Notes under the pieces: generated by a model
Databases searched by the model: none
Seen by the model: only the letters and a program-made list of their open reading frames with translations
What the model was told of the DNA's origin: nothing
Translations under genes and position numbers: made by a program
Source of the DNA: Nitrospirota bacterium
GTDB lineage: Bacteria; Nitrospirota; Thermodesulfovibrionia; Thermodesulfovibrionales; Dissulfurispiraceae
NCBI GenBank assembly: GCA_963790025.1
Contig: CAWBMP010000004.1
Span: forward strand, 288,001 to 352,000
Direction: 5' to 3'
Length of the DNA: 64,000 nucleotides
Part shown: positions 1 through 53,679 of the stretch, piece by piece
Numbering within the stretch: the first letter of the stretch is position 1
Layout of the letters: each line of letters opens with the position of its first letter

Positions 1-2829
1 CTCTGAAATACTTCCTTCAGGAAATCCGGCTATTGTAACTCTTCCATCTGCCTCCTTCAGCAGGACCATCATTTTGGGACTGACCGCGCCATACTCCGGT
101 TTAGGATAAACAAGGTAATTCGCGATGTCCTTATCAACATCAAAGTCGTTCAGTACAATGGTGTAGTCAAGGCCATTTCTTCTGAACGTCCTTTTGGGAA
201 TACCTGAACCGTAGGCGATATGTCCGCCGCCAGCTAGAACGACCATCTGGCCGTCTTTCCGAAAATCCGGGTTGTTGTTAAGAAAGTCATCAATCGCTTG
301 TGACATCGATTCATCCCAGAGTATTTGCGACTGGTAAAAAAAGTCAAATTTCATCCCATTTGCGCCGCTGTGTTTTTGGAAGACCTCATGCAGCCTCTCC
401 CTGTAGTCCTCATCAGAGAAATCCATTTGTGAAGGGATTACCCTTTTCTCCTCTTCAGAAAGTGAATCGATGCCCGCCTTTGAGACCTTATCCGTGATCT
501 CACGCTTCAAGTTAAGCGCAATTACAGGTATTCTTTCATCCCGTGCAAAGGTCAGGACCGGCCGATAAAGGTTATAGTCAAAACCCCACCTGCTAAAATA
601 TTCCGTGCCTTTCAGCATAGTCCTTTCATCGATAGTACCAGCTATATACTCGTCAAGCACTTTCTGGAAAGGCCTTTGAAACATCTCCATACCGATCGCT
701 GTGTTCTTATTTTTCCGATGCAGGGCCTTTATTACCTCCAGTTCCACAGTGTGATTTGAAAAGCGGTCATGGAACTCTCCCACATATACGATCTTCTTGC
801 CGGAAATACCCGGTATCACTTCGGCGAACGGTTTAACAGTTGAAACGTCAACGGCAAAAGTCTGATCTTTTTGCTCCACATTTATACCTCTTTCGGTTTC
901 TTCAACTTTTTTGAAAACATTCCTACCCTTGTCGAAAAGCAGAATGCTGTATTTGCCGTAGTGGAATATCTTCCCGAATGCCGCATCTACTTCCTCCCGG
1001 GATTTACCATCTATAATGCCAACCACATTGCGGCTGTTCCAGGGATTATGTCTGACCGTTACACTGAAACCCGCATCGGTCTTAATCTTTCCATAAAGCC
1101 GTTCAGCAACGTGGTTATCGTTGCCGAGAACAATCAGAGTCGTGAATTTCATATCGCTGTCCCTGATTTCGGAAGGCAGTTTTTCCACCCCTCCTTTTTC
1201 CCTGAAAGCCCTGATGACGGTGCTGTAAATTTCCTGATTTTTTACGGGAAGGACCATCACCGGTTTTTCAGCACCTATCATTCCCGCAACGACAGGGGGC
1301 AGTTCTTTCGTATCAAGCCTGCGGGCAACATCATACCTTTCGTCTATAACGACCTTTTCAGGCATGGCGCTCAGAGCGAGAGTGACAGGCGTTTTGATCT
1401 TATCGACGTGAACACTAAAGTGTTCCTCTTTGCCGCCGGGATAAAAAACCTCCAAAGGAAGTTCCAGTGTATACATCCCTGATTTCTGTTCTATGGTGAA
1501 CGAGGCTTCGTATTTGGAGCCATTGGGCTTCATATCAAATGCTTCGATGAAAAAGTCCGGTATCCCGGTGCCATCAACCCACTGCCTGAAAAACCATCCC
1601 CAGTCCTTTACGGAGTCTTTCTCAAAAATGCGCCTTATATCGTCCCATGAGGTCCTCTGAAAACGCCTCTCCCGCACAAGGTCCCGGAGCGCGTGGTTAA
1701 ATGCATCATCTCCCATTGCGCGCCGGAGCATATGGAAAACCATTGCAGCCTTTCCATAGCCGATCGCCTTCGACGAAAAATCGCTTCTTCCGATAAAATC
1801 CTTAAGAGGGAATTCGTTTGTTGGGTTTACGTAACTCTGATAATCTATCAGGATCTGCTTTCTGTATTCCCATCCCTTCCCTTTCTGCTCCTCATAAAGG
1901 TGATCTGCAAGATATGAAGTAAGCCCCTCGGCCCAGTTGCCTTTCTCATAATCAATATAAACGAGATTGCCCAACCATTGGTGCAGTATCTCATGTCCGA
2001 GCGAGGTCTCTACGATAAACGGAAGACGCACCACTTCCCGGCCAAGCAGCGTATAGGTAGGCATGGAATAGCCCGAGGAGAGAAAGTTCTCGACAATCGA
2101 GAACCGTTTGTAAGGAAATTTGCCGAGCATATCCTCATAAAGCCTGATGTATTTTTTTGCATGTTCGATGTAAGTACCGGCAAGAGACCGGTCTTCCCGG
2201 AAAAAATACGCATAGAGGTCGATTCCGTTTACAGTGTCCCTGACCTCAGCGTATTCCCTTGAGGCAATAAAGTTTATCCCTCCAACCGGGTGCGGAAAAT
2301 CGAAAGCGAATACAGCCGTTCCATTAATTACGGATTTCCTGATTTCCTCTGCCTCGGACAGGGCCGTGAAGCCTTCCGGCAGGGTCGCCCTCACGTCGTA
2401 AATACATAGATTGTTAATCAGGGGATACCATAATTCAGTAAGGGATATCCCCCTTTCATCAATAGTATTAGTGACCACTCCATAGTTGCTGTCGTGCCCT
2501 TCCCGCCCGCCTTTAAAAACACCCTCGTACACGATGACGATGTTGCCGTCACCAGCAGGGTAGAGCTTTAGAATGCCGTCACGCGCAGCCGCCTCGATCT
2601 TATTCCGACCGTTCCGGACCTCTTTAATTATCAGGTCCCCTGTGCGTATTACAAGTTCTTTGTGGGCAGGAGCATTAATAGTTGCAGTACCCAGAATCTT
2701 TGACTGGGAAATATCGAAGGAGACATCGAGTGAATATTCAGGATACTTCGGCGCTGATCGTTCAACAGCCTCCGACGTATGAGGGACCAGGAGAAACATT
2801 AAAACAGCTGCAAGCAGCAATCGTATCAT
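1..2829 (-). CDS. Exported M1-family zinc aminopeptidase fused to a ChaN (DUF399) domain and the start of a PDZ domain; 3' end runs off the window
   Basis: Not in the ORF track (no stop in window). Manual translation from ATG 2829: signal peptide MIRLLLAAVLMFLLVPHTSEA; gluzincin motif GHEILHQW...WAEGLT (~2010-1920); ChaN-type KIVYVGEFHD...IGMEMFQRPFQ...RWGFDYNLYRP (~795-560); PDZ-like GRVTIAGFPEGSISE at the edge. The spot-checked motifs are all in one frame. Confidence 0.9.
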   Translation of the reverse strand, partial: MIRLLLAAVLMFLLVPHTSEAVERSAPKYPEYSLDVSFDISQSKILGTATINAPAHKELVIRTGDLIIKEVRNGRNKIEAAARDGILKLYPAGDGNIVIVYEGVFKGGREGHDSNYGVVTNTIDERGISLTELWYPLINNLCIYDVRATLPEGFTALSEAEEIRKSVINGTAVFAFDFPHPVGGINFIASREYAEVRDTVNGIDLYAYFFREDRSLAGTYIEHAKKYIRLYEDMLGKFPYKRFSIVENFLSSGYSMPTYTLLGREVVRLPFIVETSLGHEILHQWLGNLVYIDYEKGNWAEGLTSYLADHLYEEQKGKGWEYRKQILIDYQSYVNPTNEFPLKDFIGRSDFSSKAIGYGKAAMVFHMLRRAMGDDAFNHALRDLVRERRFQRTSWDDIRRIFEKDSVKDWGWFFRQWVDGTGIPDFFIEAFDMKPNGSKYEASFTIEQKSGMYTLELPLEVFYPGGKEEHFSVHVDKIKTPVTLALSAMPEKVVIDERYDVARRLDTKELPPVVAGMIGAEKPVMVLPVKNQEIYSTVIRAFREKGGVEKLPSEIRDSDMKFTTLIVLGNDNHVAERLYGKIKTDAGFSVTVRHNPWNSRNVVGIIDGKSREEVDAAFGKIFHYGKYSILLFDKGRNVFKKVEETERGINVEQKDQTFAVDVSTVKPFAEVIPGISGKKIVYVGEFHDRFSNHTVELEVIKALHRKNKNTAIGMEMFQRPFQKVLDEYIAGTIDERTMLKGTEYFSRWGFDYNLYRPVLTFARDERIPVIALNLKREITDKVSKAGIDSLSEEEKRVIPSQMDFSDEDYRERLHEVFQKHSGANGMKFDFFYQSQILWDESMSQAIDDFLNNNPDFRKDGQMVVLAGGGHIAYGSGIPKRTFRRNGLDYTIVLNDFDVDKDIANYLVYPKPEYGAVSPKMMVLLKEADGRVTIAGFPEGSISE

Positions 2830-6402: not shown

Positions 6403-6960
6403 ATGGGCCAGGTAATTCCACTACGGGACAAAAATAATATAAAAGCGGCATTCGAAGGCGATTTCACCAATATGCTTAAAGATGTGGCCGAGGTCAAAAG
6501 GGAGGCACTGGGTACGGAAGACAACAACATCTTTCACCTGAACGTGAGTTTCGAGGACTTGTTCAAGGCCAAAATAGGCTCATTTATTATAGACCACAGG
6601 CTTATGAATGCGGACCTGTTTCGCTGCAGCCTTTATGTGGCCCATGTCCTAGGTGAAACCCTTTCAAAAAAAATAACAAGCTTTTACATAACAGATTATT
6701 TGATCCGGGGTATCGAAGAGGAAGCGCCGGATATTTTAAAAGAAGGCGCCGACCTTTGTTGCATCCTCTGCATTTTTTTTGAAGAAAGGCGCAATTGGAG
6801 AATGACGCGTGCAGGGGATTATGTAAAAATGGGCATTCGACTGTATTCACTCTACTATTCAATGACACAGAAATTGATAGGATGGTGCATGAGCAGGAAT
6901 TTTGAAAATATTACCTCTATAACAAGAAGGTGCGTAGAGGATTTTGAGAGAAAGGGATAA
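6403..6960 (+). CDS. Hypothetical protein (185 aa, predicted helical)
   Basis: Strong RBS GGGAGGGG before ATG; long ORF in AT-rich DNA with no competing frame. Confidence 0.8.
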   Translation: MGQVIPLRDKNNIKAAFEGDFTNMLKDVAEVKREALGTEDNNIFHLNVSFEDLFKAKIGSFIIDHRLMNADLFRCSLYVAHVLGETLSKKITSFYITDYLIRGIEEEAPDILKEGADLCCILCIFFEERRNWRMTRAGDYVKMGIRLYSLYYSMTQKLIGWCMSRNFENITSITRRCVEDFERKG

Positions 6961-7012
6961 CTTGATATCCTTTATTGAGTCAAGTATAGACTAATGTTTT
7001 GGTAGAAAGCCT

Positions 7013-7050
7013 GACAAAGCTAAACCCTTTGCAAAAGGGGGGCGGAAAGC
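7013..7050 (+). ncRNA. Partial GEMM (c-di-GMP-I/cGAMP) riboswitch-like segment, 5' half only
   Basis: GACAAAGCTAAACC-CTTT-GCAA-AAGG-GGGGCGGAAAGC resembles the GEMM P2 stem with GNRA loop and GGAAAGC; no recognisable P3 follows. Confidence 0.45.
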
Positions 7051-7081
7051 GGGTAAAATATTTTGGGGAAAACATTTTGGT

Positions 7082-7110
7082 TTGACGTTAATGCCAAAGT
7101 GTCATATAAT
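7082..7110 (+). promoter_or_regulatory. Sigma70-type promoter for the candidate ncRNA
   Basis: TTGACG (7082-7087), 17 bp, TATAAT (7105-7110). Confidence 0.85.
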
Positions 7111-7115
7111 TAAAT

Positions 7116-7350
7116 TAGAGAGAGAGAATTTTCTCTAATTCTTTCTCCATGTATGGGTGTTTGATACGGGAGAAAGACGCCCCGAAAGGGGGAGAGAGGG
7201 CTGTAGAAGACAGCCCGTGGTTAGCTGACGGGAAGTACATTTCAGCAACTTATGGTATATCCGCCGGCCAGCCGAAGAGGTTACCGGAAGTTTCCGGCGA
7301 CCTTTAAAAAACGAGGTAGAAGGCTTAAGTGCCCTCTACCTTTTGTTTTT
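7116..7350 (+). ncRNA. Candidate stand-alone structured ncRNA (~235 nt, six hairpins plus terminator), family not recognised
   Basis: Bounded by promoter and intrinsic terminator; consecutive hairpins 7113-7140, 7140-7177, 7180-7191 (CCCC-GAAA-GGGG), 7198-7216, 7219-7273, 7275-7305; locally GC-rich within AT-rich flanks. Confidence 0.65.
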
Positions 7351-7353
7351 TTT
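7314..7353 (+). terminator. Intrinsic terminator
   Basis: AGGTAGAAGGC-ttaagt-GCCCTCTACCT followed by TTTGTTTTTTTT. Confidence 0.85.
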
Positions 7354-7370
7354 GGGGAGCGAATTGCCAG

Positions 7371-7399
7371 TTGCAAATATTAGAATATTGGCATATATT
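7371..7399 (+). promoter_or_regulatory. Possible sigma70 promoter for the 7620 gene
   Basis: TTGCAA, 17 bp, TATATT. Confidence 0.55.
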
Positions 7400-7434
7400 A
7401 TAGTTAGTAGCATGGGTATAAAAAGAGAACTTGA

Positions 7435-7597
7435 AGTACTACAGTCCATAAATACGGTGTAGCACCGAGAACTTCGATGCGCCGCGCCAGCGAGGCGCAG
7501 GACTGAGGCGTACCACTTGGTACGGCGAGGGACTGCAACAAAGCTGGAACTGATTCAGCGGCGATCGAATGAAACCGTATTTATGAACTGTAGTACT
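7435..7597. mobile_element. MITE-like element (163 bp) with 24-bp terminal inverted repeats
   Basis: AGTACTACAGTCCATAAATACGGT ... ACCGTATTTATGAACTGTAGTACT (1 mismatch); GC-rich core with TGAGGCGTAC-N6-GTACGGCG; no ORF. Confidence 0.8.
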
Positions 7598-7619
7598 AAA
7601 TATCAGGGAGGTGACTTAC

Positions 7620-7988
7620 ATGAAAGCTATTCTCGCTGCAGTGTTGGCGGTGCTGTTTATGGTTTTTCTTGCAAGTGTCGCCATTGCTGATGAGTTATAT
7701 CCTGTCAGGGTCTATGAGCAGTCTCCGGGACCAAATACCATTAGAGGTTCGGTAGTGTCTGTAGACCGGGAAGCAGGGCAGTTTATGGTGAAACCGACAA
7801 ATCTACCCACTCTGTTGCCTGGAGCAATGACACTCTCGACGGACAGTATGACAAAAGTGAAGATGTGTGGCAGCAGCAAGACTTTTGAAGATATAAAAGT
7901 CGGTGAGAAGGTGGAAGTTCAATATCAGTCTAAAGAATATGGCAAACCCATTGCTGAAGATATTAACGTCAGAACTAAAACATGTTGA
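7620..7988 (+). CDS. Small exported protein, probable OB-fold (DUF5666/DUF1344-like)
   Basis: Signal peptide ending AIA; IRGSVVSVD, FEDIKVGEKVEVQY, IAEDI patterns; GGAGG RBS. Confidence 0.75.
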   Translation: MKAILAAVLAVLFMVFLASVAIADELYPVRVYEQSPGPNTIRGSVVSVDREAGQFMVKPTNLPTLLPGAMTLSTDSMTKVKMCGSSKTFEDIKVGEKVEVQYQSKEYGKPIAEDINVRTKTC

Positions 7989-8012: not shown

Positions 8013-8045
8013 GGCGCCGAAACTTTCGGCGCCTTTTTTATTTAT
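8013..8045 (+). terminator. Intrinsic terminator between convergent genes
   Basis: GGCGCCGAA-act-TTCGGCGCC then T-rich tail. Confidence 0.85.
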
Positions 8046-8053
8046 GCGTCACT

Positions 8054-9961
8054 TCAGGTGATCTCTTTGCTAAGCAGTATATCTGTTTTCACATGAGCCA
8101 TCGTATAAATCTCATTTAAATACTTGCTGATATCGACCTGCTGCCTGCCAATGTATGGTTTCAGGTAGTTAACTGAATGCTCAATCATCTTTTTATATAC
8201 AAGATCATTGAGGAAATATGATGGGAAATCAACTATGCAGTTGTTAAATGCCGAATATAACTGCTGGTCACTATAATCCATGAAATCAAATTTACTATAG
8301 GTCACAATTATCTTACTCTCAAAATCGCTCCACAACTTGATAAAGGCATTCATATGAATAGCAGGGAGTTTGAGGATGTCTTTAAAAATAATCAGATCGA
8401 AATAGGCAAAGTCTTTTAGATACCACTGATCGTCAGATAAGTTACTGCATGATATTACAATAAATGTCTTTGAATTCAGTCCAAATCCTTCAGAGTCAAT
8501 GATCTTGCCGAGAATAAAATGTGCATAAGAAGCGTCCTCATATCTTAACGCCATTCTTTTTAAATTCATAATGTTGAAATCCCTGAAAGCCTGCAGCAGA
8601 TATCCGAACCTTATGTCCCTGCCAAAGTAGTATATAGGATCAAATGAACTGGATGGCAAGGAAGGTCTTGCGAGATGTTCCTTAACGGCAAGGTTATTTG
8701 AAATAATCTTTGCCTCATTCACTGATTCATCAAGAAACTCAGCGATCTTTTTGTCATCCATTCCCTTGCCCTTGAGCCTTTTTGAGAGACTAAACCCGCT
8801 CTCGGCGTCTCTGTCCATAACGAAAACAACAGTGCGGAAGGTCAGGTATGCGATATAAGAAAAGACAAGTCCGTTCTTGGTAAGTTTTATTCTGATATCT
8901 TTTGGAAGGGAATAGTGCGGATTGAGTGTATTATGCGCCAGGACATAACCATTATAGAGTTCCTCAAAAGCCCCCAGGACCTTTTCAAAATGGTATTTGC
9001 CTATTTGAATCTGATCTGCCCCGAATAATGCCCTTTCGTATGACAGTGATACCTCTGAATATAACCTGAATGGGGATTTATAATACTTGTCCAGTATCCC
9101 GCTGCTTTCGCGTATCAACAGTTCGACCCCAACTGTCTCAGAGGAAAGAAGGGCGTCACCCTCGGGTTGAATATCGAAAAAACCAAAGAAACGGCACAAC
9201 TTTCTAAAAACTGCAGACTTTAGAATACTATAAGCCTCATAGTCCTCAAACATGGAGACGGCGTTCTTGGACTGGAAAAACCTTTTGTGACCATAGATAC
9301 GCAAAATCTCACGAACTTTAGTATGGCCCAGCCTGTTTATGGCAAAGTCAATACTCACTTTTTGAATTTTGATGCCGGCATCTGAACTTACCGCTTTTGC
9401 AATCATCATGTCCTTCAGTAAGGGCAAGCTTTCCTCTTTTTCCCTGGCAGTTCCTCCGTCTGGTTCTCCATCTTTTGCCTTTAACGCCTCCATATCTGTT
9501 CTTCTTTTTAATTCCTCCAGACTGGAGATATCATCTATATATGCCCCTATCTTTTTCATATTCGGCTCATGGCTGTCCATTTCCAGGATAAGATTCACCA
9601 TTTTGGTCAGGATCTCATCTTTTTTATATTGCTGGATGGCTTTTTCCGGTATGCTCATCTGAGGCGGCGCCAGCACTTCTTTTGGCTTTTTAATCCTCTT
9701 GACAATAAATGCAGGGTCGTTAAAGGCCCCTGAAAATTGCAAGCCGATAAAGTCGTTGTTTTCCCACCGCACCTCTGTTTTTATTTCCACGGTGGCGATG
9801 TTGAAGTTTAATGCCGGGATTTTGTTAGTAAAGCCGGTTGCTTTCCTTATCTTCAGGCCTTTTCTACTGACCTCAACAACGCTACCAATGCCTTCAACCG
9901 GGATCTCATCGATAATATATCTATCGCATTTTCTCCGGTTGAGCGGTTTTTTAGTTTCCAT
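8054..9961 (-). CDS. PilZ-domain protein with HDOD-like middle region and degenerate AAA+-like C-terminus
   Basis: N-terminal RRKCDR and EVSRKG PilZ motifs, EVRW...IGLQF; SIDFAINRLG...VREI HDOD-like motif. Confidence 0.7.
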   Translation of the reverse strand: METKKPLNRRKCDRYIIDEIPVEGIGSVVEVSRKGLKIRKATGFTNKIPALNFNIATVEIKTEVRWENNDFIGLQFSGAFNDPAFIVKRIKKPKEVLAPPQMSIPEKAIQQYKKDEILTKMVNLILEMDSHEPNMKKIGAYIDDISSLEELKRRTDMEALKAKDGEPDGGTAREKEESLPLLKDMMIAKAVSSDAGIKIQKVSIDFAINRLGHTKVREILRIYGHKRFFQSKNAVSMFEDYEAYSILKSAVFRKLCRFFGFFDIQPEGDALLSSETVGVELLIRESSGILDKYYKSPFRLYSEVSLSYERALFGADQIQIGKYHFEKVLGAFEELYNGYVLAHNTLNPHYSLPKDIRIKLTKNGLVFSYIAYLTFRTVVFVMDRDAESGFSLSKRLKGKGMDDKKIAEFLDESVNEAKIISNNLAVKEHLARPSLPSSSFDPIYYFGRDIRFGYLLQAFRDFNIMNLKRMALRYEDASYAHFILGKIIDSEGFGLNSKTFIVISCSNLSDDQWYLKDFAYFDLIIFKDILKLPAIHMNAFIKLWSDFESKIIVTYSKFDFMDYSDQQLYSAFNNCIVDFPSYFLNDLVYKKMIEHSVNYLKPYIGRQQVDISKYLNEIYTMAHVKTDILLSKEIT

Positions 9962-11458: not shown

Positions 11459-13045
11459 ATGGAAGAAAAAATACAAGCCCTCATAAAGGCTTTCAGGGAC
11501 GGCGGAGGAAATGTCCTGTCCCTTATGCAAGACACGCAGGAAGCATTCGGTTATATCCCTGAAGAGGCTGTAAATATTTTTTCAAAAGAACTAAAAATTC
11601 CTGCAAGCAATTTCTATGGAGTTTCCACATTTTACAAGCAGTTTGATCTGCAACCCGGTATGGTCCATGGTACGTCCGATAACCAGGTTACCGGCTGCGC
11701 CCCTGCTGCCCAGGGGCAGACGACAGATAAGAAGCAGGTAAAAGTGCTGTTGTCCGTCTGCGGCATTATCGATCCTGAAGACATCGAAGCCTACCGGTCC
11801 GCGGGCGGCTACTCTGCAATTGAAAAAGCTTTGACTTCCATGACACCTGAAGAAGTGATCGACGTAATAAAAAAATCAGGACTGCTTGGCCGCGGGGGAA
11901 GCGGTTTTCCCACAGGCGTCAAATGGGAGGTCTGTCGCAATGCTCAAGCTGATCAGAAATACATAGTATGCAACACCGACGAAGGCGACCCTGGGGCATT
12001 CACGTACAGGGCCATTCTGGAAGGGAACCCGCACTCGGTCATCGAGGGCATGGCAATAGGCGCGTTTGCTATCGGCGCTACAAAGGGCTATGTTTATGTA
12101 CGCGGCGAATATCCCTTTGCCGTGCAGCGGCTGAAGAAGGCCATTGCATCGGCGCAGGAGAAAGGATACCTTGGCGTCAATCTTTTCAGTAAGGGGTTCG
12201 ATTTCGATATCACGATAAAGTTGGGCGCAGGCGCCTTTGTTTGCGGTGAGGAAACCGCGCTTATGGAGGCTATAGAGGGGCATCGGGGAATGTCGAGGGC
12301 AAAACCGCCCTTCCCTGTGCAACACGGGTTATGGGGAAAGCCCACTGTCGTGAACAACATCGAGACCCTGGCAAATGTCCCTTACATTATCGAGAAGGGA
12401 CACGACTGGTTTTCGTCATATGGAACCGAAAAATCAAAAGGCACTAAGCTCATCTCTCTTACCGGAAACTTAAAAAGCACCGGCTTGTTCGAAGTGCCGA
12501 TGGGCATTACCCTGAAAGAGATTATTTATGATATAGGCGGTGGGATGGAAGACGGCAAGACGCTGAAAGCTGTCCATATCGGAGGCCCTTTAGGAGGCTG
12601 CCTCACTGCCGACATGCTGGACGTCAAACTGGACTACGAGTCTCTTGAAAAAGCCGGTTCTTTTCTGGGGTCCGGCGGAATTATTGTACTCGATGAAAAC
12701 AGTTGCATGGTGGACATGGCAAAACGCTTTGTAACCTTTTCGCGGGACGAGTCGTGCGGCAAATGCGTGCCTTGCAGGATCGGTACCAAACGTCTCCTTG
12801 ATATGCTCGACAGGATAACTAAAGGGCTCGGCAGGGAGGGAGATCTCGAAATTATAGAGAAACTTGGCAACGACATGAAAGCCGCATCATTGTGCGGTCT
12901 TGGTCAAGGGGCCCCCAATCCAGTGCTCAGCACGCTCAAGCACTTCAGGGATGAGTACTTAACACATATAAAAGACAGGAAGTGCGTTGCTGACGTATGC
13001 AGTGACATCCAGCAGGAAGCAGAGGCTGTTTTAAACCTGATTTGA
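11459..13045 (+). CDS. NADH/FMN-binding NuoF-like subunit with fused NuoE N-terminal helical domain (FDH diaphorase subunit)
   Basis: QEAFGYIPEE...GVSTFY (NuoE N-term); SGLLGRGGSGFPTG, DEGDPG, GAGAFVCGEETAL, ESCGKCVPCR...SLCGLG. Confidence 0.9.
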   Translation: MEEKIQALIKAFRDGGGNVLSLMQDTQEAFGYIPEEAVNIFSKELKIPASNFYGVSTFYKQFDLQPGMVHGTSDNQVTGCAPAAQGQTTDKKQVKVLLSVCGIIDPEDIEAYRSAGGYSAIEKALTSMTPEEVIDVIKKSGLLGRGGSGFPTGVKWEVCRNAQADQKYIVCNTDEGDPGAFTYRAILEGNPHSVIEGMAIGAFAIGATKGYVYVRGEYPFAVQRLKKAIASAQEKGYLGVNLFSKGFDFDITIKLGAGAFVCGEETALMEAIEGHRGMSRAKPPFPVQHGLWGKPTVVNNIETLANVPYIIEKGHDWFSSYGTEKSKGTKLISLTGNLKSTGLFEVPMGITLKEIIYDIGGGMEDGKTLKAVHIGGPLGGCLTADMLDVKLDYESLEKAGSFLGSGGIIVLDENSCMVDMAKRFVTFSRDESCGKCVPCRIGTKRLLDMLDRITKGLGREGDLEIIEKLGNDMKAASLCGLGQGAPNPVLSTLKHFRDEYLTHIKDRKCVADVCSDIQQEAEAVLNLI

Positions 13046-13080
13046 GGTAAAAAAATCAAATATGTAGGCAGGGAGCAATA

Positions 13081-15762
13081 ATGATAAAGGCAACTATAGA
13101 CGGCAAAATAATTGAAGTTAAGGAAGGCACCACTGTTTTGGAAACAGCAAAGCTGCTGGGCATTTCAATACCAACGCTATGCCACCATCCCAAGCTGACC
13201 CCGACCGGCGGCTGCAGGCTCTGCATCGTTGAGATAAAGGGGTTTCAGCGGCCGGTCACATCGTGCACAACGCCGGTGACCGAGGGGATGGAAGTAACAA
13301 CATCATCCCCTCTCATCGCGGATTTGCGGAAGAGTATGCTCGACCTTATTCTTTCGGACCATCCGCTCGACTGCCCGAGATGTATACGTGGCGGCGACTG
13401 CCAGCTGCAGGATGTGGCTTTTTTATACGGGGCGAAAGAAAACAAGTTCCCGGGTGAAAGAAGGGAATACACAAAAATTGACATCAACCCCTTCATCTCA
13501 AGGGACATGGAAAAGTGCATTCTTTGCGAAAGGTGTGTCAAGATTTGTGATGAGGTGCAGGGTGTAGGGGCCATCGATATTGCTTACAAGGGCTTTAAAT
13601 CAAAGATATGTCCGCCATACGAAAACCCCCTTGATTGCGAATTTTGCGGTCAATGCGTATCCGTGTGTCCCACCGGCGCCCTTGCCGGAAAGATGTGGGA
13701 CCGCAAAGACAAGAGCTGTGATGAAAAACAGGTCGATACAGTCTGTCCTTATTGCGGCACAGGCTGCCATATCACGCTGCATGTGCAACAGGACAGAATC
13801 ACGAAGCGCGACAGGGTCATACGCGTAACTTCAAGAGATGACACCTGGAACAAGGGCTTGCTGTGTGTAAAAGGGAGGTTCGGTTACAAATTCATCAACA
13901 GTCCGGACAGGCTCACAAAGCCGCTTGTAAGGAAAAACGACCGCTTCGAAGAAGTTTCGTGGGAAGAGGCCTATGAATACACTGCAAAAAGGCTGAACGA
14001 GATAAAGGCCGCCTACGGTCCCGATTCAATCGGCGGGTTATCATCGGCCCGTTGCACAAATGAAGAAAATTATGCCTTTCAAAAAATGATAAGGGCCGCG
14101 GTGGGGACGAACAATGTCGACCACTGCGCCCGACTTTGACACGCGCCAACGGTGGCCAGTCTGGCTGCCATATTCGGCTCTGGCGCGATGACAAATTCCA
14201 TCGAGGAAATCGAAGGAATGGAAGTCATATTCATCATTGGCTCAAATACCAAAGAAACGCATCCGGTTATCGCCAACAGGATGATTAAGGCATACCGGAA
14301 GGGGGCGAAGATAATAATAGCCGACCCGCGTAACGTGCCGATGACCCGTTTTGCCGATACGGTACTGAACCTGCAACCTGGTACTGATATAGCACTGATC
14401 AACGGGATCGCCCATGTCATTATCAAGGAAGGGCTTGAGAATAAGACCTTTATCCAGGAAAAGACAGAGGGCTTTGAGGAATGGAAGAAATTGCTGGAGG
14501 AATATACTCCTGAATATGTAGAAAAAATAACCGGAGTGAGCCAGGAAAATATCATAAAGGCCGCACGTCTTTACGGCGGCTCCCGGAAGGCCGGCCTTTT
14601 CTACACCATGGGTATAACGCAGCATACCTGCGGCACAGATAATGTGGCCGCAGTTGCAAACCTGGTCACGCTCACTGGCAATATTGGACGGGAATCTACA
14701 GGGGTGAACCCTCTAAGGGGACAGAACAATGTCCAGGGGGCTTCGGATGCAGCCTGCCTGCCCTCTGTTTACCCGGGATACCAGAAGGCTGACGATCCCG
14801 ATATAAGGGCCAAATTTGAAAAGGCATGGGGAGTGCCGCTCGCCCCAAAATCAGGCCTGACAGCAACACAAATGATACCGGCAGCTCTCGAAGGGAAGAT
14901 AAAGGCACTCTATATAATGGGAGAAAACCCGGTCATTACCGATCCCAATACGCATCATACAGTTGACGCCCTCAACAAGCTCGCTTTTCTGGTTGTCCAG
15001 GATATCTTCCTGACAGAAACAGCCCAGCTTGCTGACGTAGTACTGCCTTCAACATGTTTTGCCGAAAAAGAAGGCACTTTCTCCAATACTGCGAGAAAGG
15101 TCCAAAGAGTAAGAAAGGCTGTTGATCCTCCTGGCGACGCCCGTTCCGACCTCTCCATCATCATGGAGATGTCACGCCGGCTCGGCTATCCAATGCACTA
15201 TAAATCTCCGGAGGACGTTCTGGTTGAGTTCGGCCAGGTATGGCCCAATCTTGCGGGGATAACGTACAAGCGTATCGACAAGGTCGGCATTCATTGGCCT
15301 TGCCCTGACAAGAATCATCCCGGCACCCCTTATCTCTACAAAGCGGGGTTCCCCGTAGGAAAGATACGTTTCTCTCCTATCATGTTCTCTCCACCGGCCG
15401 AGGTGACTGACAACGAGTATCCGTTTATCCTGACGACCGGAAGAAACCTGTACCAGTACCACTCCGGATCAATGACCAGACGGGTACCCGCAATCGAGGC
15501 CCATGCCGGCGAGCCTTATGTCGAAATCAGCGCCAAAGACAGCGGAAAGCTCCAGGTAAAGGATGGGGATATCTTGGCTGTCTCTTCCCGGCGCGGCACA
15601 ATAAGATTAAAAGCGAGGGTCACTTCGAAAGTCACGGAAGGTACGGTATTCATACCTATGCATTACGCCGAGGCCGCGGCAAATATGATTACAAACGACG
15701 CCCTCGATGCAAAGGTCAAAATACCTGAATACAAAGTTTGCGCTGTAAAAATAGAAAAGTGA
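13081..15762 (+). CDS. fdhA: Selenocysteine-containing formate dehydrogenase alpha subunit (893 aa; Sec at TGA 14137-14139)
   Basis: ORFs 13081-14139 and 14152-15762 are in the same frame and join as DHCARL-U-HAPTVASL; NuoG-like Fe-S N-terminus, CPYCGTGC, PLRGQNNVQG, PEYKVCAV. Confidence 0.95.
14151..14169 (+). promoter_or_regulatory. Bacterial SECIS hairpin
   Basis: GGTGGCCA-GTC-TGGCTGCC stem begins 11 nt after the in-frame TGA, with G in the apical loop. Confidence 0.8.
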
Positions 15763-27309: not shown

Positions 27310-27936
27310 TTATTTTGCCAGCGGACCCGTAGCGTGGGCGACCCCCGACAGCTTCCCTTCACGGAAAATAAGCTTCGTCTGGCACAAAGTACCTGAATAA
27401 AGCCATTCCTCCCGGACAGGACCGGAACCTGCCTTGGCAAGCGCCCCGAACACCGAATCGGGTCCTCCCCATGCGTACCTAACTTGCTGACCCGTCATCC
27501 CGGAGACAACCTCTCCTTTGATGATGTTCTGTTGAATTTCGGGAGGAAAGGCCTTTATCTCCTCCATTGTGTATCTGACTGCGGGAGAGCCGTCACTGCT
27601 TTTCGTTCTTCCGGAGTCACTGATGGCAATGCCGAACAATTTCCCGTCACGAAAACTTAATTTTGTCCGGCAGCCCCCAAGGTAAGAATAAGTCCACTCA
27701 TAGCCGCTCTTGCCATCGGGGAGCTGGACAGCCGAATCTTCTTTGGGTCCTCCCCATGCATATCTGACCTGATGCGACGTCATCCCCGTGGAAATCTCTT
27801 CACGAATAATACTTTCCTGAATCTCCGGAGGATAGCTTTTTATCTCCTCGCCGGTATACCGCAATGGAGACGAGGAGCAACCGCCTGCAGCTAATGCAAT
27901 GACACATAATAGACAAAGCCATTTATTCACACTCAT
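27310..27936 (-). CDS. Lipoprotein with two tandem SmpA/BamE-like repeats
   Basis: Lipobox AGGC; RYT.EEIK..PPEIQ..I...E...GMT..QVRYAWGGP occurs twice. Confidence 0.75.
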   Translation of the reverse strand: MSVNKWLCLLCVIALAAGGCSSSPLRYTGEEIKSYPPEIQESIIREEISTGMTSHQVRYAWGGPKEDSAVQLPDGKSGYEWTYSYLGGCRTKLSFRDGKLFGIAISDSGRTKSSDGSPAVRYTMEEIKAFPPEIQQNIIKGEVVSGMTGQQVRYAWGGPDSVFGALAKAGSGPVREEWLYSGTLCQTKLIFREGKLSGVAHATGPLAK

Positions 27937-34315: not shown

Positions 34316-34386
34316 GAAGAAAGTACAGGGGAAGTCTGTTTATCGGCGCATTGCACAGATAAACAGACTTCCCCTGTACTTTCTTC
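34316..34386. repeat. Perfect 29-bp inverted repeat (short member of the GAAAGT.CAGGG family)
   Basis: gaagaaagtacaggggaagtctgtttatc - 13 nt - gataaacagacttcccctgtactttcttc. Confidence 0.9.
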
Positions 34387-34509
34387 CTAAACTTTCTTTT
34401 ATAGGACGCTCCTATCAATAAACGCTGTTACTTAGGAAAAAGCTATTTGACACATAGATATCAAAACAGTATTAATTAAACATTGCACTCGAAGCATATA
34501 AGTTCACAG

Positions 34510-34582: not shown

Positions 34583-35185
34583 ATGATAGTGGATGCGAGA
34601 GGTATGGGCTGTCCCAAACCGGTGTTGCTGGCCGAGAATGCCCTGTCCGGAATAGGTGAAGGCATTATTGATGTCTTGATTGATAACGAGGCATCTGTAA
34701 AAAATCTCATGCGTTTTGCTTCAAAAAACGGTTTTTATTCGGAGGATTCCAAAGAGGATGGGTACTGGAAGGTCCGGATCGTTAAAGGATATTCCTGCGA
34801 AGTGCCGGGCACTCAAATCGCCGGTGACCAGGGTGTTGAGAGCCCGGACAAAGATGTGCTGCTCATTATAGGATCTGATACGATCGGCAAAGACGAGACG
34901 TTGGGGAAAATTCTCATGAAGGGATTTTTTGAGACGATGAAACTGACCAAGGAGGTCCCCCATACCATTTTTTTCCTCAATACCGCTGTTAAACTAACCA
35001 CCATGGACCAGGAAATGATAGCTATTCTTCGTGACATTGAGAAAATGGGCGTGGAAATCTTTTCATGCGGGACTTGCCTTAAACACTACGATCTTGAAAA
35101 GTCCCTGATGATCGGCTACCGCGGCACAACAAATCATATAGTGGAAGGGATTAATACTTTCGACAAAACGGTCTGGATCGGATAA
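34583..35185 (+). CDS. yedF: Sulfurtransferase-like selenium metabolism protein YedF (TusA + DsrE domains)
   Basis: VDARGMGCPKPV; LGKILMKGFF, SCGTCL; AAGGAG RBS before ATG 34583. Confidence 0.9.
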   Translation: MIVDARGMGCPKPVLLAENALSGIGEGIIDVLIDNEASVKNLMRFASKNGFYSEDSKEDGYWKVRIVKGYSCEVPGTQIAGDQGVESPDKDVLLIIGSDTIGKDETLGKILMKGFFETMKLTKEVPHTIFFLNTAVKLTTMDQEMIAILRDIEKMGVEIFSCGTCLKHYDLEKSLMIGYRGTTNHIVEGINTFDKTVWIG

Positions 35186-35187
35186 AA

Positions 35188-35320
35188 CAGTAAGCAGCCT
35201 GCAGCAGACAGTAAGCAGCAAAAGAAAAAGACAAAAGAGTTATCTTATATTGTCCTTTGCTGCATACTGCTCACTGCCTATTTGTTTTCTGCTTACTTCT
35301 TACTGCTTACTTCTTACTGC
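35188..35320. repeat. Inverted heptamer array (CAGTAAG / CTTACTG)
   Basis: cagtaag cagcctg cagcaga cagtaag - spacer - catactg ctcactg ... cttactt cttactg cttactt cttactg; contains the ppdK stop. Confidence 0.85.
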
Positions 35321-46110: not shown

Positions 46111-46866
46111 ATGGAGGAAACAGTGGTTGTTTTTGGAAAATGGACAAGGGACTCCCTGGAGGATATTCTGCGTGAGTCATCCTCATACAGTACACCGGGG
46201 CAACGCATACAGTATCTTTCATCTTTTTTCCTGGGTGTTGCTTATAAAGAGTCGACCCTGATCGGCGACATCGGCACACCGGAAATGCTGGTAATTAATC
46301 TTCAGGAAGTCGACTGCATTACCTTCATCGAGTACATCGAAGCTATGCGCCTGTCGGGCTCGTTTGAGGACTTTGAAAGAAAACTGAAGAAAATAAGATA
46401 CCGTTCCGGGAAGGTCGCCTTTACCGCAAGAAAGCACTTCTTCACGGACTGGAGTGAATTTAACAGGGATTATGTCGACGATGTCACAAGACATATAGGG
46501 GGCCGCAAAACAATACGCATCCGCAAACAATTGAATATCAGGGAGGACGGGACAGCCTTTCTCTATGGCATTAAACCATGCGAGCGTGAAATCGCCTATA
46601 TACCTTCCGACGCACTGGCCGATGAACGTGCTGACGCCCTTGCAGATTCGGTCCTTGATACTCTGCAGACCGGTGACTATATAGGTATTTACTCGGGCAC
46701 GCCCGGTCTTGATGTGTCACATGCGGGCATATTCATCAAAGACGGAGCCAAGGCATATCTGAGGCATGCCTCAGCCGTAAAAGAGCAGAGGAAAGTGATC
46801 GACCAGGATTTTAAAAACTACATGACTGCCAAACCCGGGATTGTTGTACTCAGACCAAAAAGTTAG
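46111..46866 (+). CDS. DUF1460 family N-acetylmuramoyl-L-alanine amidase-like protein (NlpC/P60 superfamily)
   Basis: FLGVAY...TL, DCITFIE, RYR.G, RKHFFTDW, GLDVSHAG, LRHAS. Confidence 0.88.
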   Translation: MEETVVVFGKWTRDSLEDILRESSSYSTPGQRIQYLSSFFLGVAYKESTLIGDIGTPEMLVINLQEVDCITFIEYIEAMRLSGSFEDFERKLKKIRYRSGKVAFTARKHFFTDWSEFNRDYVDDVTRHIGGRKTIRIRKQLNIREDGTAFLYGIKPCEREIAYIPSDALADERADALADSVLDTLQTGDYIGIYSGTPGLDVSHAGIFIKDGAKAYLRHASAVKEQRKVIDQDFKNYMTAKPGIVVLRPKS

Positions 46867-46926
46867 GCAATAGGCAATGGGCCACAGTTAAAAAAAATAA
46901 AACTGTGGCCCATTGCCTATTGCCTA
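46864..46926. repeat. Perfect 26-bp inverted repeat with heptamer units (TAGGCAA); likely bidirectional terminator
   Basis: taggcaataggcaatgggccacagtt - A-rich loop - aactgtggcccattgcctattgccta; both outer ends are TAG stop codons of the convergent genes. Confidence 0.9.
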
Positions 46927-48165
46927 TGGCCTGACTTTGCCTATGGCCGCAATGTCGTCTCTCATCCACCACAGAAGTAAGAGTCCAGGGACCGCAGATA
47001 TTGTAGCCAGCAAAAAGAAATGGGCCCAGCCCACCGTTTCAACAACGTATCCTGATGAGGGCGCTATAAATATTCTACCCAGTGCCGCGAGCGATGACAG
47101 CAAGGCATACTGGGTTGCACTATATCTCTGATTGCATAGTGCCATAAGAAGAGAAACAAATGCCGCCGTTCCCATGCCGCCGCAAAGATTCTCAAAGGCG
47201 ACGGCAACGATCATCACCGGATAGCTCTTGCCTGCCAATGCGAGCACCATAAACGACAGGACAGATACCGCCTGCAGTATGCCGAATGTCATAAGCGATT
47301 TATATAGCCCGAGCCGCACCATAAGCGTACCTCCAAACAACGCGCCGATTATCAGTGAAACCAGGCCCAATCCCTTATTTATCGCACCCACATCGGTAGG
47401 AGAAAACCCGAGTCCTCTTATAAGGAACGCAGTCGTCATAGTCCCTGCATATGCATCACCGATTTTATACAACACAATTACCAGGAGGAGCGCAAAAGCC
47501 GAGGGGCGTGAGAAGAAATCTTGAAGCGGTCCCCACGCCGCCTCGCGAACACTTTTAGGCGGGGTTATTTTCTCATCGGGCTCCGGACCCATGGCAGTTG
47601 CAGCCATGCCCGCAACCATTATCAATGACATAAGAAGATACGTATAGCGCCAGCCTATTCTGTCTGAAAGGATAAGCGCAACTGCGCCGGACACAATCAT
47701 CGCTATCCGGTAGCCCATAACAAAAACTGCGGCCCCTATACCAAGCTCCTTCTCATGCAGCACATCGGTCCGATATGCATCAACAACGATATCTTGTGAT
47801 GCCGATGCAAAAGCGACGACTGCCGCTAAGGCCCCCATTGCAAGAGGGTACTGCCGTGGAGAACTGAAGGCCATTGCAGCGATGCCCCCAATTAGGCATA
47901 ACTGTGCAATAAGTATCCAACCTCTCCTTCTACCCAGCCATGGCGGTATAAACCGGTCCATAACGGGCGACCAGATGAACTTCAATGTGTACGGAAGTCC
48001 TACGAGCGCGAAAATACCGATAGTACGCAGGTCCACTCCGGCAACCGCCATCCACGCCTGCAATGTTCCGCCGGTCAGCGCGAGCGGAAGGCCCGAGGAA
48101 AATCCGAGCAGCATGACAGTTGCAATGCGGCGGCTGTGAAATACCTGAAGATATTTATTAAACAT
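46924..48165 (-). CDS. ampG: Muropeptide MFS permease AmpG
   Basis: LLGFSSGLP, LPYTLKFIWSP..DR, LGRRRGW, SASQDIVVDAYR, SATQYALLSS. Confidence 0.95.
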   Translation of the reverse strand: MFNKYLQVFHSRRIATVMLLGFSSGLPLALTGGTLQAWMAVAGVDLRTIGIFALVGLPYTLKFIWSPVMDRFIPPWLGRRRGWILIAQLCLIGGIAAMAFSSPRQYPLAMGALAAVVAFASASQDIVVDAYRTDVLHEKELGIGAAVFVMGYRIAMIVSGAVALILSDRIGWRYTYLLMSLIMVAGMAATAMGPEPDEKITPPKSVREAAWGPLQDFFSRPSAFALLLVIVLYKIGDAYAGTMTTAFLIRGLGFSPTDVGAINKGLGLVSLIIGALFGGTLMVRLGLYKSLMTFGILQAVSVLSFMVLALAGKSYPVMIVAVAFENLCGGMGTAAFVSLLMALCNQRYSATQYALLSSLAALGRIFIAPSSGYVVETVGWAHFFLLATISAVPGLLLLWWMRDDIAAIGKVRP

Positions 48166-51898: not shown

Positions 51899-53679
51899 TA
51901 CCGGCTCCTATACCTGTTGGTTATGGGGAATCTCCTGTCCCTGCCGAATGCCCGGGGAGTGATCTTTATGCCGGGCGGAGACTGTCGCCTTTTATACTCG
52001 CTGAAATCAACCATGCGTATGACCCTTTTTGTGTCCTCCACCGGACAATTCGGGTTGAGAGTAATGATCTCGTCGAAACTTTTGTCCTCCTCGATATATT
52101 GCTTCAAGACCGGATCAAGTATATCGTAAGGAGGCAGCGTATCTGTATCTCTTTGGTCAGGCTTCAATTCCGCTGAAGGCGCCCTGGTAATGACCCTTTC
52201 GGGGATTACCATTCTGCCCGCTTCCAGATTTTTCCATTTGCACAGCCGGTAGACCAGTGTTTTCGGGACGTCTTTTATGACAGCAAACCCTCCGGCCATG
52301 TCCCCGTAGAGTGTGGCATAGCCCACGCTCATCTCAGACTTGTTTCCGGTGGTGAGCACAAGCCACCCGAATTTATTTGAAAAGGCCATGAGCAGGTTCC
52401 CCCTGATTCTGGCCTGGAGGTTCTCTTCAGTACTGTCAGAAGACATTTTTTGAAAGTATGGTCTCAGGGTCTCCAGGTACGAATCAAATACTGCGGCAAT
52501 CGGGATTTCAATCAACTTTATACCGAGATGTCCTGCAAGTTCCTGAGAATCTTCCTTGCTTTCCCGCGAGGTGTATGGCGAAGGCATAAACACACCTGTA
52601 ACATTATCTCCACCAACAGCATCAACCGCAATGGCAGCGACAAGAGCGGAATCGATCCCACCGCTCAAACCGATACAAACATTGACAAACCCATTCTTGT
52701 GAACATAATCCCTGGTCCCAAGGACCAGCGCCCTGTATACCTCCTCCTCTATCACCTCCGGAGCGCGGAAGCCCTGAAGCGCGGAACTTGCACTATGAAA
52801 GCCTTTTCCTTCCGCGCTTCCCCTCTTCCGGGCCTCTGCTCTTCCGGACTTTCCTGTTATTGTGATTTTCTCGACCACGTCCGGTTGCAAATCAAAGACC
52901 TGTTGCCTTCTTGTCGGCTCATGAAGGCGCCTGATGAAAACCGCGTCCAGGTCCAGATCAACCATGATCACGTCCTCTTCGAACTGTTTACCTTCGGCAA
53001 TTATTTCGCCGTTCTGGTCCACTACGAAACTTTGTCCATCGAACACCAGTTCATCCTGTCCTCCCACGGTATTCAAATATGCGATGATAACACTGTTATC
53101 ATAAGCGCGTGTAGACAGCATTCTCTTTCTGAATCCGCCTTTGCCGATATGGTAAGGGGAAGCGTTGATATTGATAATAAATTCAGCGCCTGCCAGCGCC
53201 TGTACAGTGCTCGGTCCGCCAGCATACCAGATATCCTCGCAAATGGTAACGCCGAACAAATAATCTTCCATTTGGTATACCGCATATCTGCTGCCTGCCT
53301 GGAAGTATCTAAACTCGTCGAAAACGCTGTAATTCGGCAAATGCATCTTATGATAAACATCTACAAGCCGCCCTTTGTGCATGACTGCAGCGGCATTAAA
53401 TATATCATCCCTCCTGTCCACAAACCCGGTTATTACCACTGCATCGCGGGTGCTATCCTGGATTTCCTTGAGCGCGGCAAGTGTATCCTGAATGAACTGA
53501 GGCTTTAAGAGAAGGTCTTCAGGGGGATAGCCGGTCAGCGCAAGCTCAGGGAATACAATGATATCGGGGGAGTACTCTCCGACCGTTTCAACATACCCCA
53601 TGATCTTCTTTACATTGCCGTTCAGGTCACCCACTGTGGGGTTGATCTGGCATAAAGCAATACGGACCGTCTTCATCAA
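51898..53679 (-). CDS. nadE: Glutamine-dependent NAD+ synthetase
   Basis: FPEL..GYPPEDL, ICEDIW, LSGGIDS, ENLQARIRG, TGNKSE, PSAEL, EYKRRQ. Confidence 0.97.
   Translation of the reverse strand: MMKTVRIALCQINPTVGDLNGNVKKIMGYVETVGEYSPDIIVFPELALTGYPPEDLLLKPQFIQDTLAALKEIQDSTRDAVVITGFVDRRDDIFNAAAVMHKGRLVDVYHKMHLPNYSVFDEFRYFQAGSRYAVYQMEDYLFGVTICEDIWYAGGPSTVQALAGAEFIININASPYHIGKGGFRKRMLSTRAYDNSVIIAYLNTVGGQDELVFDGQSFVVDQNGEIIAEGKQFEEDVIMVDLDLDAVFIRRLHEPTRRQQVFDLQPDVVEKITITGKSGRAEARKRGSAEGKGFHSASSALQGFRAPEVIEEEVYRALVLGTRDYVHKNGFVNVCIGLSGGIDSALVAAIAVDAVGGDNVTGVFMPSPYTSRESKEDSQELAGHLGIKLIEIPIAAVFDSYLETLRPYFQKMSSDSTEENLQARIRGNLLMAFSNKFGWLVLTTGNKSEMSVGYATLYGDMAGGFAVIKDVPKTLVYRLCKWKNLEAGRMVIPERVITRAPSAELKPDQRDTDTLPPYDILDPVLKQYIEEDKSFDEIITLNPNCPVEDTKRVIRMVDFSEYKRRQSPPGIKITPRAFGRDRRFPITNRYRSR
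52760..52850. repeat. Inverted octamer array inside nadE (AAGCGCGG / CTTCCGNG)
   Basis: gagcgcgg aagccctg aagcgcgg - spacer - cttccgcg cttcccct cttccggg cctctgct cttccgga. Confidence 0.75.

Follow-up and report, generated by a model that had tools for sequence, protein, structure and literature searches.

A plausible orphan small RNA gene, perhaps in the shell of a decayed riboswitch, in a Nitrospirota genome

Small RNAs (sRNAs) of the Hfq or ProQ type are transcribed from a sigma-70 promoter, begin with a hairpin and close with an A/U stretch and a U-tailed terminator, and they contain no credible open reading frame (ORF). Sponge RNAs such as CsrB and RsmZ are built of many consecutive hairpins, and in the riboswitch-gated sequestering sRNAs EutX and Rli55 an adenosylcobalamin (AdoCbl) aptamer is combined with ANTAR-type dual hexaloop hairpins. 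Riboswitches for cyclic di-GMP (c-di-GMP) may likewise stand in a non-coding RNA (ncRNA): PMC3627812 describes Bdellovibrio merRNA as a 445-nt ncRNA with a c-di-GMP riboswitch and no conserved downstream ORF, and according to PMC9943018 no other riboswitch class lacks a sense-strand target gene as often as the c-di-GMP riboswitches do. Here we consider a block of hairpins at 7113-7353 on the + strand of a 64,000-nt stretch of DNA from a Nitrospirota bacterium of the family Dissulfurispiraceae (contig CAWBMP010000004.1, positions 288,001 to 352,000; hereafter the window, whose numbering we use throughout). An earlier note, made from the letters of the window, had marked this block as a candidate stand-alone sRNA of about 235 nt belonging to an unfamiliar family. 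In our view it is plausibly an orphan sRNA gene, set in what looks like the shell of a riboswitch that has decayed. It would be an RNA of a familiar kind, for which neither a family nor the abundance inferred in the note can be claimed and no second member is known.

The block is like the Hfq- and ProQ-type sRNAs in its own sigma-70 promoter, its 5' hairpin, its A/U stretch with a U-tailed terminator, its length of 200-250 nt and its lack of a credible ORF. However, it falls in no family and leaves very little sequence single-stranded, with 74 of 241 nt unpaired in the minimum free energy (MFE) fold. Like CsrB and RsmZ it strings many hairpins together, but it contains four GGA motifs against a mean of 4.96 in shuffled sequences, none of them in a hairpin loop, and a sponge of this type was rejected. 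With EutX and Rli55 it would share the succession of aptamer, structured ncRNA and terminator, although no ANTAR-type dual hexaloops were seen here by eye. Set beside merRNA, as that RNA is presented in PMC3627812, the locus again has a c-di-GMP-I-clan aptamer-like element followed by structured RNA with no conserved ORF, and it too appears lineage-restricted. It differs in that the aptamer scores below the threshold and its 3' half is probably degenerate, and in that a strong internal promoter would exclude the aptamer from the main transcript.

A block of hairpins between a promoter and a terminator

The block lies in a spacer of 650 nt between the gene of a 185-amino-acid (aa) protein (6403-6960, + strand) and that of a 125-aa secreted protein (7611-7988, + strand), the latter with a GGGAGG Shine-Dalgarno sequence 5' of its ATG. 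Read along the + strand, the spacer presents a promoter-like site, the structured block and a terminator in that order; a promoter of its own and an intrinsic terminator around an ORF-poor structured segment make up the generic layout of an sRNA gene. The features are listed here with the folding energy, the z score and the number of shuffles that fold as well.

7082-7110, + strand: near-consensus sigma-70 promoter TTGACG-17-TATAAT, 11 of 12 consensus positions
7113-7140, + strand: hairpin 1, rich in A/U and GA/UC and lying at the predicted 5' end; -9.7 kcal/mol, z -3.0, 1 of 200 shuffles as good
7140-7177, + strand: hairpin 2, UCUUUCUCC/GGAGAAAGA with an inner stem, with the ATG of the 52-codon ORF inside it; -15.8 kcal/mol, z -4.5, 0 of 200
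7149-7307, + strand: 52-codon ORF spanning the hairpins, no Shine-Dalgarno sequence
7180-7191 (tested as 7178-7193), + strand: hairpin 3, CCCC-GAAA-GGGG; -8.0 kcal/mol, z -1.3, 27 of 200, not significant alone
7198-7216 (tested as 7196-7218), + strand: hairpin 4, GGGCUGU/ACAGCCC; -12.6 kcal/mol, z -5.4, 0 of 200
7218-7274, + strand: weakly structured 57-nt segment with a 16-nt apical loop; -15.9 kcal/mol, z -0.94, 29 of 200, not significant
7276-7305 (tested as 7275-7306), + strand: hairpin 6, AGAGGUU-ACCGGA...UCCGG-GACCUUU; -16.4 kcal/mol, z -4.6, 0 of 200
7306-7353, + strand: bidirectional intrinsic terminator with an A tract, a stem of 8+3 bp and UUUUGUUUUUUUU; -19.9 kcal/mol, z -5.0, 0 of 200
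7371-7399, + strand: promoter-like site TTGCAA-17-TATATT for the 125-aa gene, 9 of 12 consensus positions

The multi-hairpin block, the promoter and the terminator on which the earlier note had built its candidate are all present where the note placed them, as is the ORF. Seven hairpins follow one another back to back over 7113-7353 with almost no linker, and five of the seven are individually significant, each beating at least 199 of 200 shuffles. Hairpin 1 has its helix at 7114-7123/7130-7139, with 2 G-C pairs only. By contrast with the description in the note, which had seen a long G-U-containing stem in the segment at 7218-7274, that segment does no better than shuffled sequence. As a whole, the + strand of the block reaches an MFE of -99.4 kcal/mol (z -7.46), which none of 200 dinucleotide shuffles equalled, and in a comparison of 533 frames, each of 240 nt, no other + strand frame is as stable for its GC content (z -4.43), the block being added in its own register to frames that otherwise lie on a 120-nt grid. 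The other strong folds of the window are single long terminator hairpins between convergent genes, and the multi-hairpin layout is unique there. The - strand of 7113-7353 gives -90.5 kcal/mol (z -7.82); the + fold is better by 8.9 kcal/mol and contains 11 G-U pairs, the - fold 6.

The promoter is one of two sites with 11 of 12 matches when both strands of the window are scanned. The other, at 52682-52709 (+), lies antisense within an NAD-synthase ORF and is probably a chance match; by our own arithmetic about 0.85 such sites are expected by chance per 128 kb at equal base frequencies. It follows that the match alone proves nothing, while the placement of the site before hairpin 1 is informative: the promoter stands 3-7 nt 5' of that hairpin, at the exact 5' edge of the structured block. 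From standard promoter geometry we infer a transcription start at about 7117-7118, on A7117 or G7118. The next gene had been credited with a separate promoter at 7371-7399, a claim that does not hold up well, as the site is one of three 9/12 matches in 1.7 kb where shuffled sequences lead one to expect 3.0, which is chance level.

At the other end, the stem and U tail of the closing terminator are found as described, and its two faces differ. A simple scan lists it on the - strand only, where the stem has 11 contiguous pairs and the tail is CGTTTTTTAA. On the + strand the stem is split into 8+3 pairs by an A.C mismatch, and the U run is much longer, with 12 U in the 13 bases 3' of the stem.

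None of the known RNA classes accounts for the block. At gathering scores, Rfam 15 has no match anywhere in the 64-kb window, which answers the database check that the earlier note had proposed. At E <= 10, a search of 6900-7700 gave over 7113-7353 only noise (a trypanosomatid snoRNA, atpB and an sraA-like terminator match), and none of 6S, transfer-messenger RNA (tmRNA), signal recognition particle (SRP) RNA, RNase P or tRNA appeared in that interval. ARAGORN, run on the window, reported one tRNA-Arg elsewhere (27363-27459) and no tmRNA. The opinion that the layout fits none of these five classes is supported by these searches over 7113-7353.

A scattered DNA repeat, which would have spoken against an RNA gene, was likewise not seen: the block has no second copy in the window and no copy in 32 related loci or in plasmid and phage collections, and on this basis a repeat of the repetitive extragenic palindrome (REP) or miniature inverted-repeat transposable element (MITE) type was rejected. 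So was a replication origin, 6900-7700 having no DnaA box with at most one mismatch. Inspection by eye for an UP element, transposon ends or a target-site duplication (a 9-nt TTTTGGGGA repeat stands at 7061 and 7350) gave no convincing signal and no terminal inverted repeats.

Two other spacers of the window, 34316-34390 and 46866-46930, hold very long near-perfect hairpins between convergent genes, acting as bidirectional terminators. Such hairpins are the cause of sub-threshold Rfam matches to miRNA precursors, among them mir-1303 at 46859-46926. A sub-threshold MIR408 match at 35185-35300 falls in another purine/pyrimidine-repeat spacer.

The 52-codon ORF had been entered in the earlier note as a caveat, and rightly, in that it exists and lacks a Shine-Dalgarno sequence, with no purine-rich stretch upstream. 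Compared with 1.84 billion representative proteins, it matches only itself, under the entry P0063 by which a public collection calls it as a protein, and P0064, a 549-aa repeat protein. We rejected P0064 as a homologue: one stretch of it scores 25 bits (pairwise E 6e-5), and the library-wide E-value arises because this chance similarity is multiplied by six repeats. The ORF has no Pfam or NCBIfam family. Its codon score of 0.165 bits per codon is ambiguous, standing at the 20th percentile of real in-frame 52-codon chunks and being reached by 10% of 160 spurious nested ORFs; the 125-aa gene itself scores 0.147. Taken together, we regard translation of the ORF as unlikely.

An aptamer-like element upstream of the block

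The 5' part of the spacer contains two further features, both of which the earlier note had missed.

6962-6990, + strand: upstream promoter-like site TTGATA-17-TATAGA, from which the aptamer-like element could be transcribed
7010-7099, + strand: aptamer-like element of the c-di-GMP-I clan (GEMM-I-like), a sub-threshold match to RF03167

The match at 7010-7099 is to the family c-di-GMP-I-GGC (RF03167, clan CL00126), at 34 bits where the gathering score is 59; E is 4.3e-6 in a search of 801 nt and 3.4e-4 in the whole window. It spans P1, the GNRA-capped P2 and the junction nucleotides, and the P2 and junction columns are aligned with high posterior probability. We take the resemblance to the clan to be real, yet it stays below family membership. 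P3 and a stable P1 are missing: the model skipped 43 nt in place of the 33 P3 positions, and when the family pairs of P1, P2 and P3 are forced on the element they give -5.2 kcal/mol against an MFE of -26.8 kcal/mol, with a competing hairpin at about 7072-7102. The 3' half is A/U-rich and weak, and is probably degenerate. The element also overlaps the -35 hexamer of the promoter at 7082-7110, so that the unit at 7113-7353 may not be truly stand-alone. In other words, the stand-alone character claimed in the earlier note is upheld as far as the unit's own promoter and terminator go, but the overlap at the -35 hexamer may tie it to what lies upstream.

A bona fide member of the family provides a means of comparison. 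The 32 related loci come from one genome scan anchored on the gene of a 635-aa protein that lies convergent to the 125-aa gene in the window (8054-9961, - strand), and Rfam scans of them found one true member, at 1964-2047 (-) of the locus L019 (62.6 bits against the gathering score of 59), from a related Thermodesulfovibrio-like metagenome-assembled genome (MAG). The riboswitch unit of that locus, 1552-2100 (-), consists of a promoter TTGATA-17-TATAGT, the c-di-GMP-I-GGC aptamer, a G+C-rich terminator with eight U, a Shine-Dalgarno sequence and a two-CW-domain gene (NF045718, E 1.6e-29). Its aptamer alone folds stably (-30.6 kcal/mol). The P1 3' strand looks by eye complementary to the top of the terminator, which suggests an OFF switch.

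The window and L019 are alike in their promoter hexamers and spacing and in the core formed by the 5' strand of P1, P2 and the junction. The hexamers of the upstream site (TTGATA at 6962-6967, TATAGA at 6985-6990) align one for one with those of L019 at the same spacing; the -10 reads TATAGA as against TATAGT and thus lacks the conserved final T, for which reason the scan did not list it. The core AAAC-N14-GGGCGSAAAGC is common to the window and L019 only, that is, to 2 of 33 sources amounting to 441,847 bases, and a 3' ...GCC..AGT is similar in the two. The -35 of the promoter at 7082-7110 sits exactly at the conserved 3' junction position of L019, and hairpin 1 with the U-rich UUCUUUCU sits at the position of the L019 terminator; hairpin 1, however, has only two G-C pairs, and no gene with a Shine-Dalgarno sequence follows before 7611. 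Where the two differ is in what comes next, as the window continues with a new promoter and some 240 nt of hairpins and has no two-CW gene. A remnant of such a gene was sought 3' of the aptamer-like element, and no similarity was found in the window. We read 7010-7099 as the decayed sensor of a riboswitch unit, the expression platform and gene of which have given place to a new transcription unit.

Conservation and genomic neighbourhood

The 32 loci are not syntenic with the window: none carries the 125-aa or the 185-aa neighbour gene, and the orthologous spacer is not among them. In these non-syntenic loci, no relative turned up for the RNA, for the aptamer region or for the downstream leader, either by blastn (best E 0.26-0.92) or by nhmmer, which gave nothing at E <= 1. 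A single-sequence covariance model of the block (7113-7306; 194 positions, 64 pairs) recovered only itself and, in locus L021, one match at E 1.1. Because the orthologous spacer is not among these loci, such blanks are no evidence against conservation. Nothing similar to the RNA was found in the plasmid and phage collections. Homologues of the flanking genes form 8 clusters for the 125-aa gene and 40 for the 185-aa gene, the latter with up to 94% identity. Among the papers listed in our literature searches, as judged by title or abstract, we found no small-RNA work on the Thermodesulfovibrio/Dissulfurispira clade.

The earlier note had spoken of a c-di-GMP-flavoured neighbourhood. By Pfam, none of GGDEF, EAL, HD-GYP or PilZ occurs in 50 ORFs of the window besides the 52-codon ORF, a scan that left out ORF 1-2829 (-), the Nuo/Fdh-like genes at 11459-15762 and a few nested ORFs. 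What speaks for the claim is the 635-aa protein, the N-terminal fold of which is weakly PilZ-like. This is a conserved hypothetical protein with 54 homologue clusters in Nitrospirota and Desulfobacterota-type MAGs, and in its N-terminal 90 residues RxxDR and ExSxxG are invariant in 16 relatives. Its sequence has no match in Pfam or the PDB. An AlphaFold model of the N-terminal domain is of modest quality (pLDDT 63.5), and a PDB search with that model returned mainly PilZ domains, weakly (E 0.011-0.6, TM 0.4-0.5). On this modelled basis the c-di-GMP flavour is plausible but thin.

Several observations concern the surroundings in their own right. The leader of the 125-aa gene, 7404-7625 (+), folds as a single long rod closed by a 24-nt inverted repeat (7435-7458 / 7574-7597, 96% complementary); the rod (7404-7605) has an MFE of -86.6 kcal/mol (z -8.0) and ends 8 nt 5' of the Shine-Dalgarno sequence. 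It has no Rfam match, and no second copy in the 64-kb window or the 32 related loci, and may represent an insertion of the MITE type or else a leader with a cis-regulatory role. Between the convergent genes, a hairpin at 8013-8033 has a T run on the + strand only, so that the 635-aa gene (-) would be left without a U-tailed terminator of its own before the - face of the terminator at 7341-7304, and may therefore have a long 3' untranslated region (UTR) antisense to the 125-aa gene. Farther away, a formate-dehydrogenase-like gene at 13081-15762 (+) is split by an in-frame TGA (14137-14139, ...HCARLUHAPT...), with a sub-threshold SECIS_3 match at 14134-14192 (45.9 bits, gathering score 63), and probably encodes a selenoprotein.

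A proposed RNA and its rivals

We propose that 7117-7353 (+) is transcribed on its own into a non-coding RNA of about 235 nt, a reading that we hold tentatively and to which we give slightly less than an even chance. Transcription would begin at the near-consensus promoter 7082-7110, with its start at 7117-7118, and the 5' end would fold immediately into hairpin 1, which may shield the RNA from 5'-end-dependent decay; an RNase E/G gene stands in the window at 59927-61435, so that protection by a 5' hairpin would make sense. With four more stable hairpins and the U-tailed terminator hairpin, the RNA would be compact and resistant to nucleases, and it would end at 7353. This RNA gene would occupy the expression-platform position of a c-di-GMP-I-type riboswitch unit (promoter, aptamer, terminator, gene), in which the 5' half of the aptamer would survive at 7010-7050 and the degenerated 3' half would now carry the -35 hexamer. 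We hypothesize that the product acts in trans as a regulatory RNA, in which the poorly structured 7218-7274 with its 16-nt loop, or else the loops of the hairpins, could be the contact surface for targets or a protein, and the A/U stretch with the terminator could be a chaperone-binding 3' module.

A number of points weigh against such an RNA. It is built on a single sequence, with no homologue and hence no covariation, and chance almost certainly accounts for the one other 11/12 promoter match in the window. The excess of G-U pairs on the + strand is near the expectation from composition (GxU/AxC = 1.46) and only slightly beyond it, the terminator stem with its 11 contiguous pairs is the better one on the - strand, and the codon score of the ORF lies within the range of real genes. 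A target search with 7218-7274 against 53 translation-start regions of the window gave a best duplex of -40.6 kcal/mol, which 30% of shuffled seeds equalled. Lastly, the scan found no terminator between the stop of the upstream 185-aa gene (6960) and 7306, so that the block could be simply the 3' UTR of that gene.

This last point is the starting place for a different explanation, in which there is no dedicated RNA gene and the spacer is the 3' UTR and terminator region of the 185-aa gene, or what is left of a rearranged riboswitch leader, with a promoter that arose by chance. Such an origin would agree with the clearly spurious nature of one of the two 11/12 promoter matches, with the long stable intergenic hairpins that are usual in this genome (34316-34390, 46866-46930), and with the lack of a homologue in the 32 non-syntenic loci and the plasmid and phage collections. 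However, five separate and unrelated hairpins in addition to the terminator, individually significant, far exceed what a terminator needs; the other structured intergenic sites of the window are single hairpins, and the promoter stands precisely where the structured block begins. We consider this explanation unlikely. The promoter could also be genuine and drive the 125-aa gene, with 7113-7353 as a cis-acting attenuator in a long regulatory leader whose terminator is read through on a signal. Small secreted proteins like the 125-aa product are often under cyclic-dinucleotide riboswitches; the gene lies 260 nt farther along the same strand, and the intervening 9/12 promoter is at chance level. 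Yet no anti-terminator complementary to the 5' arm of the terminator was seen by eye, the rod-like leader with its z of -8.0 already separates terminator and gene, and the terminator is strong, with a 12-U tail, all of which makes a long leader very improbable. We think even less of a small protein gene in which the 52-codon ORF is translated and the hairpins are structure in its messenger RNA. Its codon log-likelihood, like that of the 125-aa gene and above that of 90% of the spurious nested ORFs, and its entry as P0063 would favour a gene of this sort, but the ATG is buried in hairpin 2 and unprovided with a Shine-Dalgarno sequence, the protein has no family, and its sole match other than itself is the repeat-amplified chance similarity to P0064.

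The remaining alternatives keep the RNA and give the sensor back to it. A riboswitch-containing ncRNA of about 355 nt could start at about 6997 and carry at 7010-7099 a functional cyclic-dinucleotide aptamer that determines its length, fold or stability in a ligand-dependent manner, possibly alongside a 235-nt isoform. The E-value of 3.4e-4 for the aptamer-like match in the window, the alignment of the hexamers and the 5' half with the bona fide L019 unit (62.6 bits), and the position of hairpin 1 with UUCUUUCU at the L019 terminator are in keeping with this, as is a joint fold of 6995-7360 in which the aptamer core pairs with 7255-7275 and which is about 9 kcal/mol better than the separate parts. 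There is precedent for it in merRNA (PMC3627812) and in the frequency with which c-di-GMP riboswitches are described as lacking a sense-strand target gene (PMC9943018). On the other hand, 34 bits is far under the gathering score of 59, P3 is wholly skipped by the model and the forced family pairs cost about 21 kcal/mol relative to the MFE. Hairpin 1 with two G-C pairs would be a poor terminator, the complementarity between P1 and an anti-terminator that L019 appears to have was not seen here by eye, and the upstream -10 is without the conserved final T. We therefore find a functional riboswitch of this kind distinctly unlikely. More specifically, 6997-7353 could be a new type of cyclic-dinucleotide-responsive ncRNA, following merRNA- or EutX-like logic for c-di-GMP or cyclic GMP-AMP (cGAMP), in which the aptamer, GEMM-I-like but divergent and with an unusual A/U-rich P3, would gate a 240-nt multi-hairpin effector domain or cause it to refold, and would with its 3' half double as the promoter of a constitutive, sensor-less short isoform. 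We regard this elaboration as improbable.

As it stands, the proposed RNA of about 235 nt is a prediction from a single sequence, useful at present as a well-defined target for RNA sequencing and comparative work. The riboswitch-remnant context is the more interesting side of this candidate sRNA gene. If the aptamer still binds a ligand, the locus would join Bdellovibrio merRNA as a second case of a riboswitch of the c-di-GMP class within an ncRNA instead of the leader of a messenger RNA. If the proposed reading is true, the RNA would be among the first candidate regulatory RNAs of the Thermodesulfovibrionales/Dissulfurispiraceae branch of the Nitrospirota, and it would show that the shell of a riboswitch unit, once decayed, can be taken over by an RNA gene.

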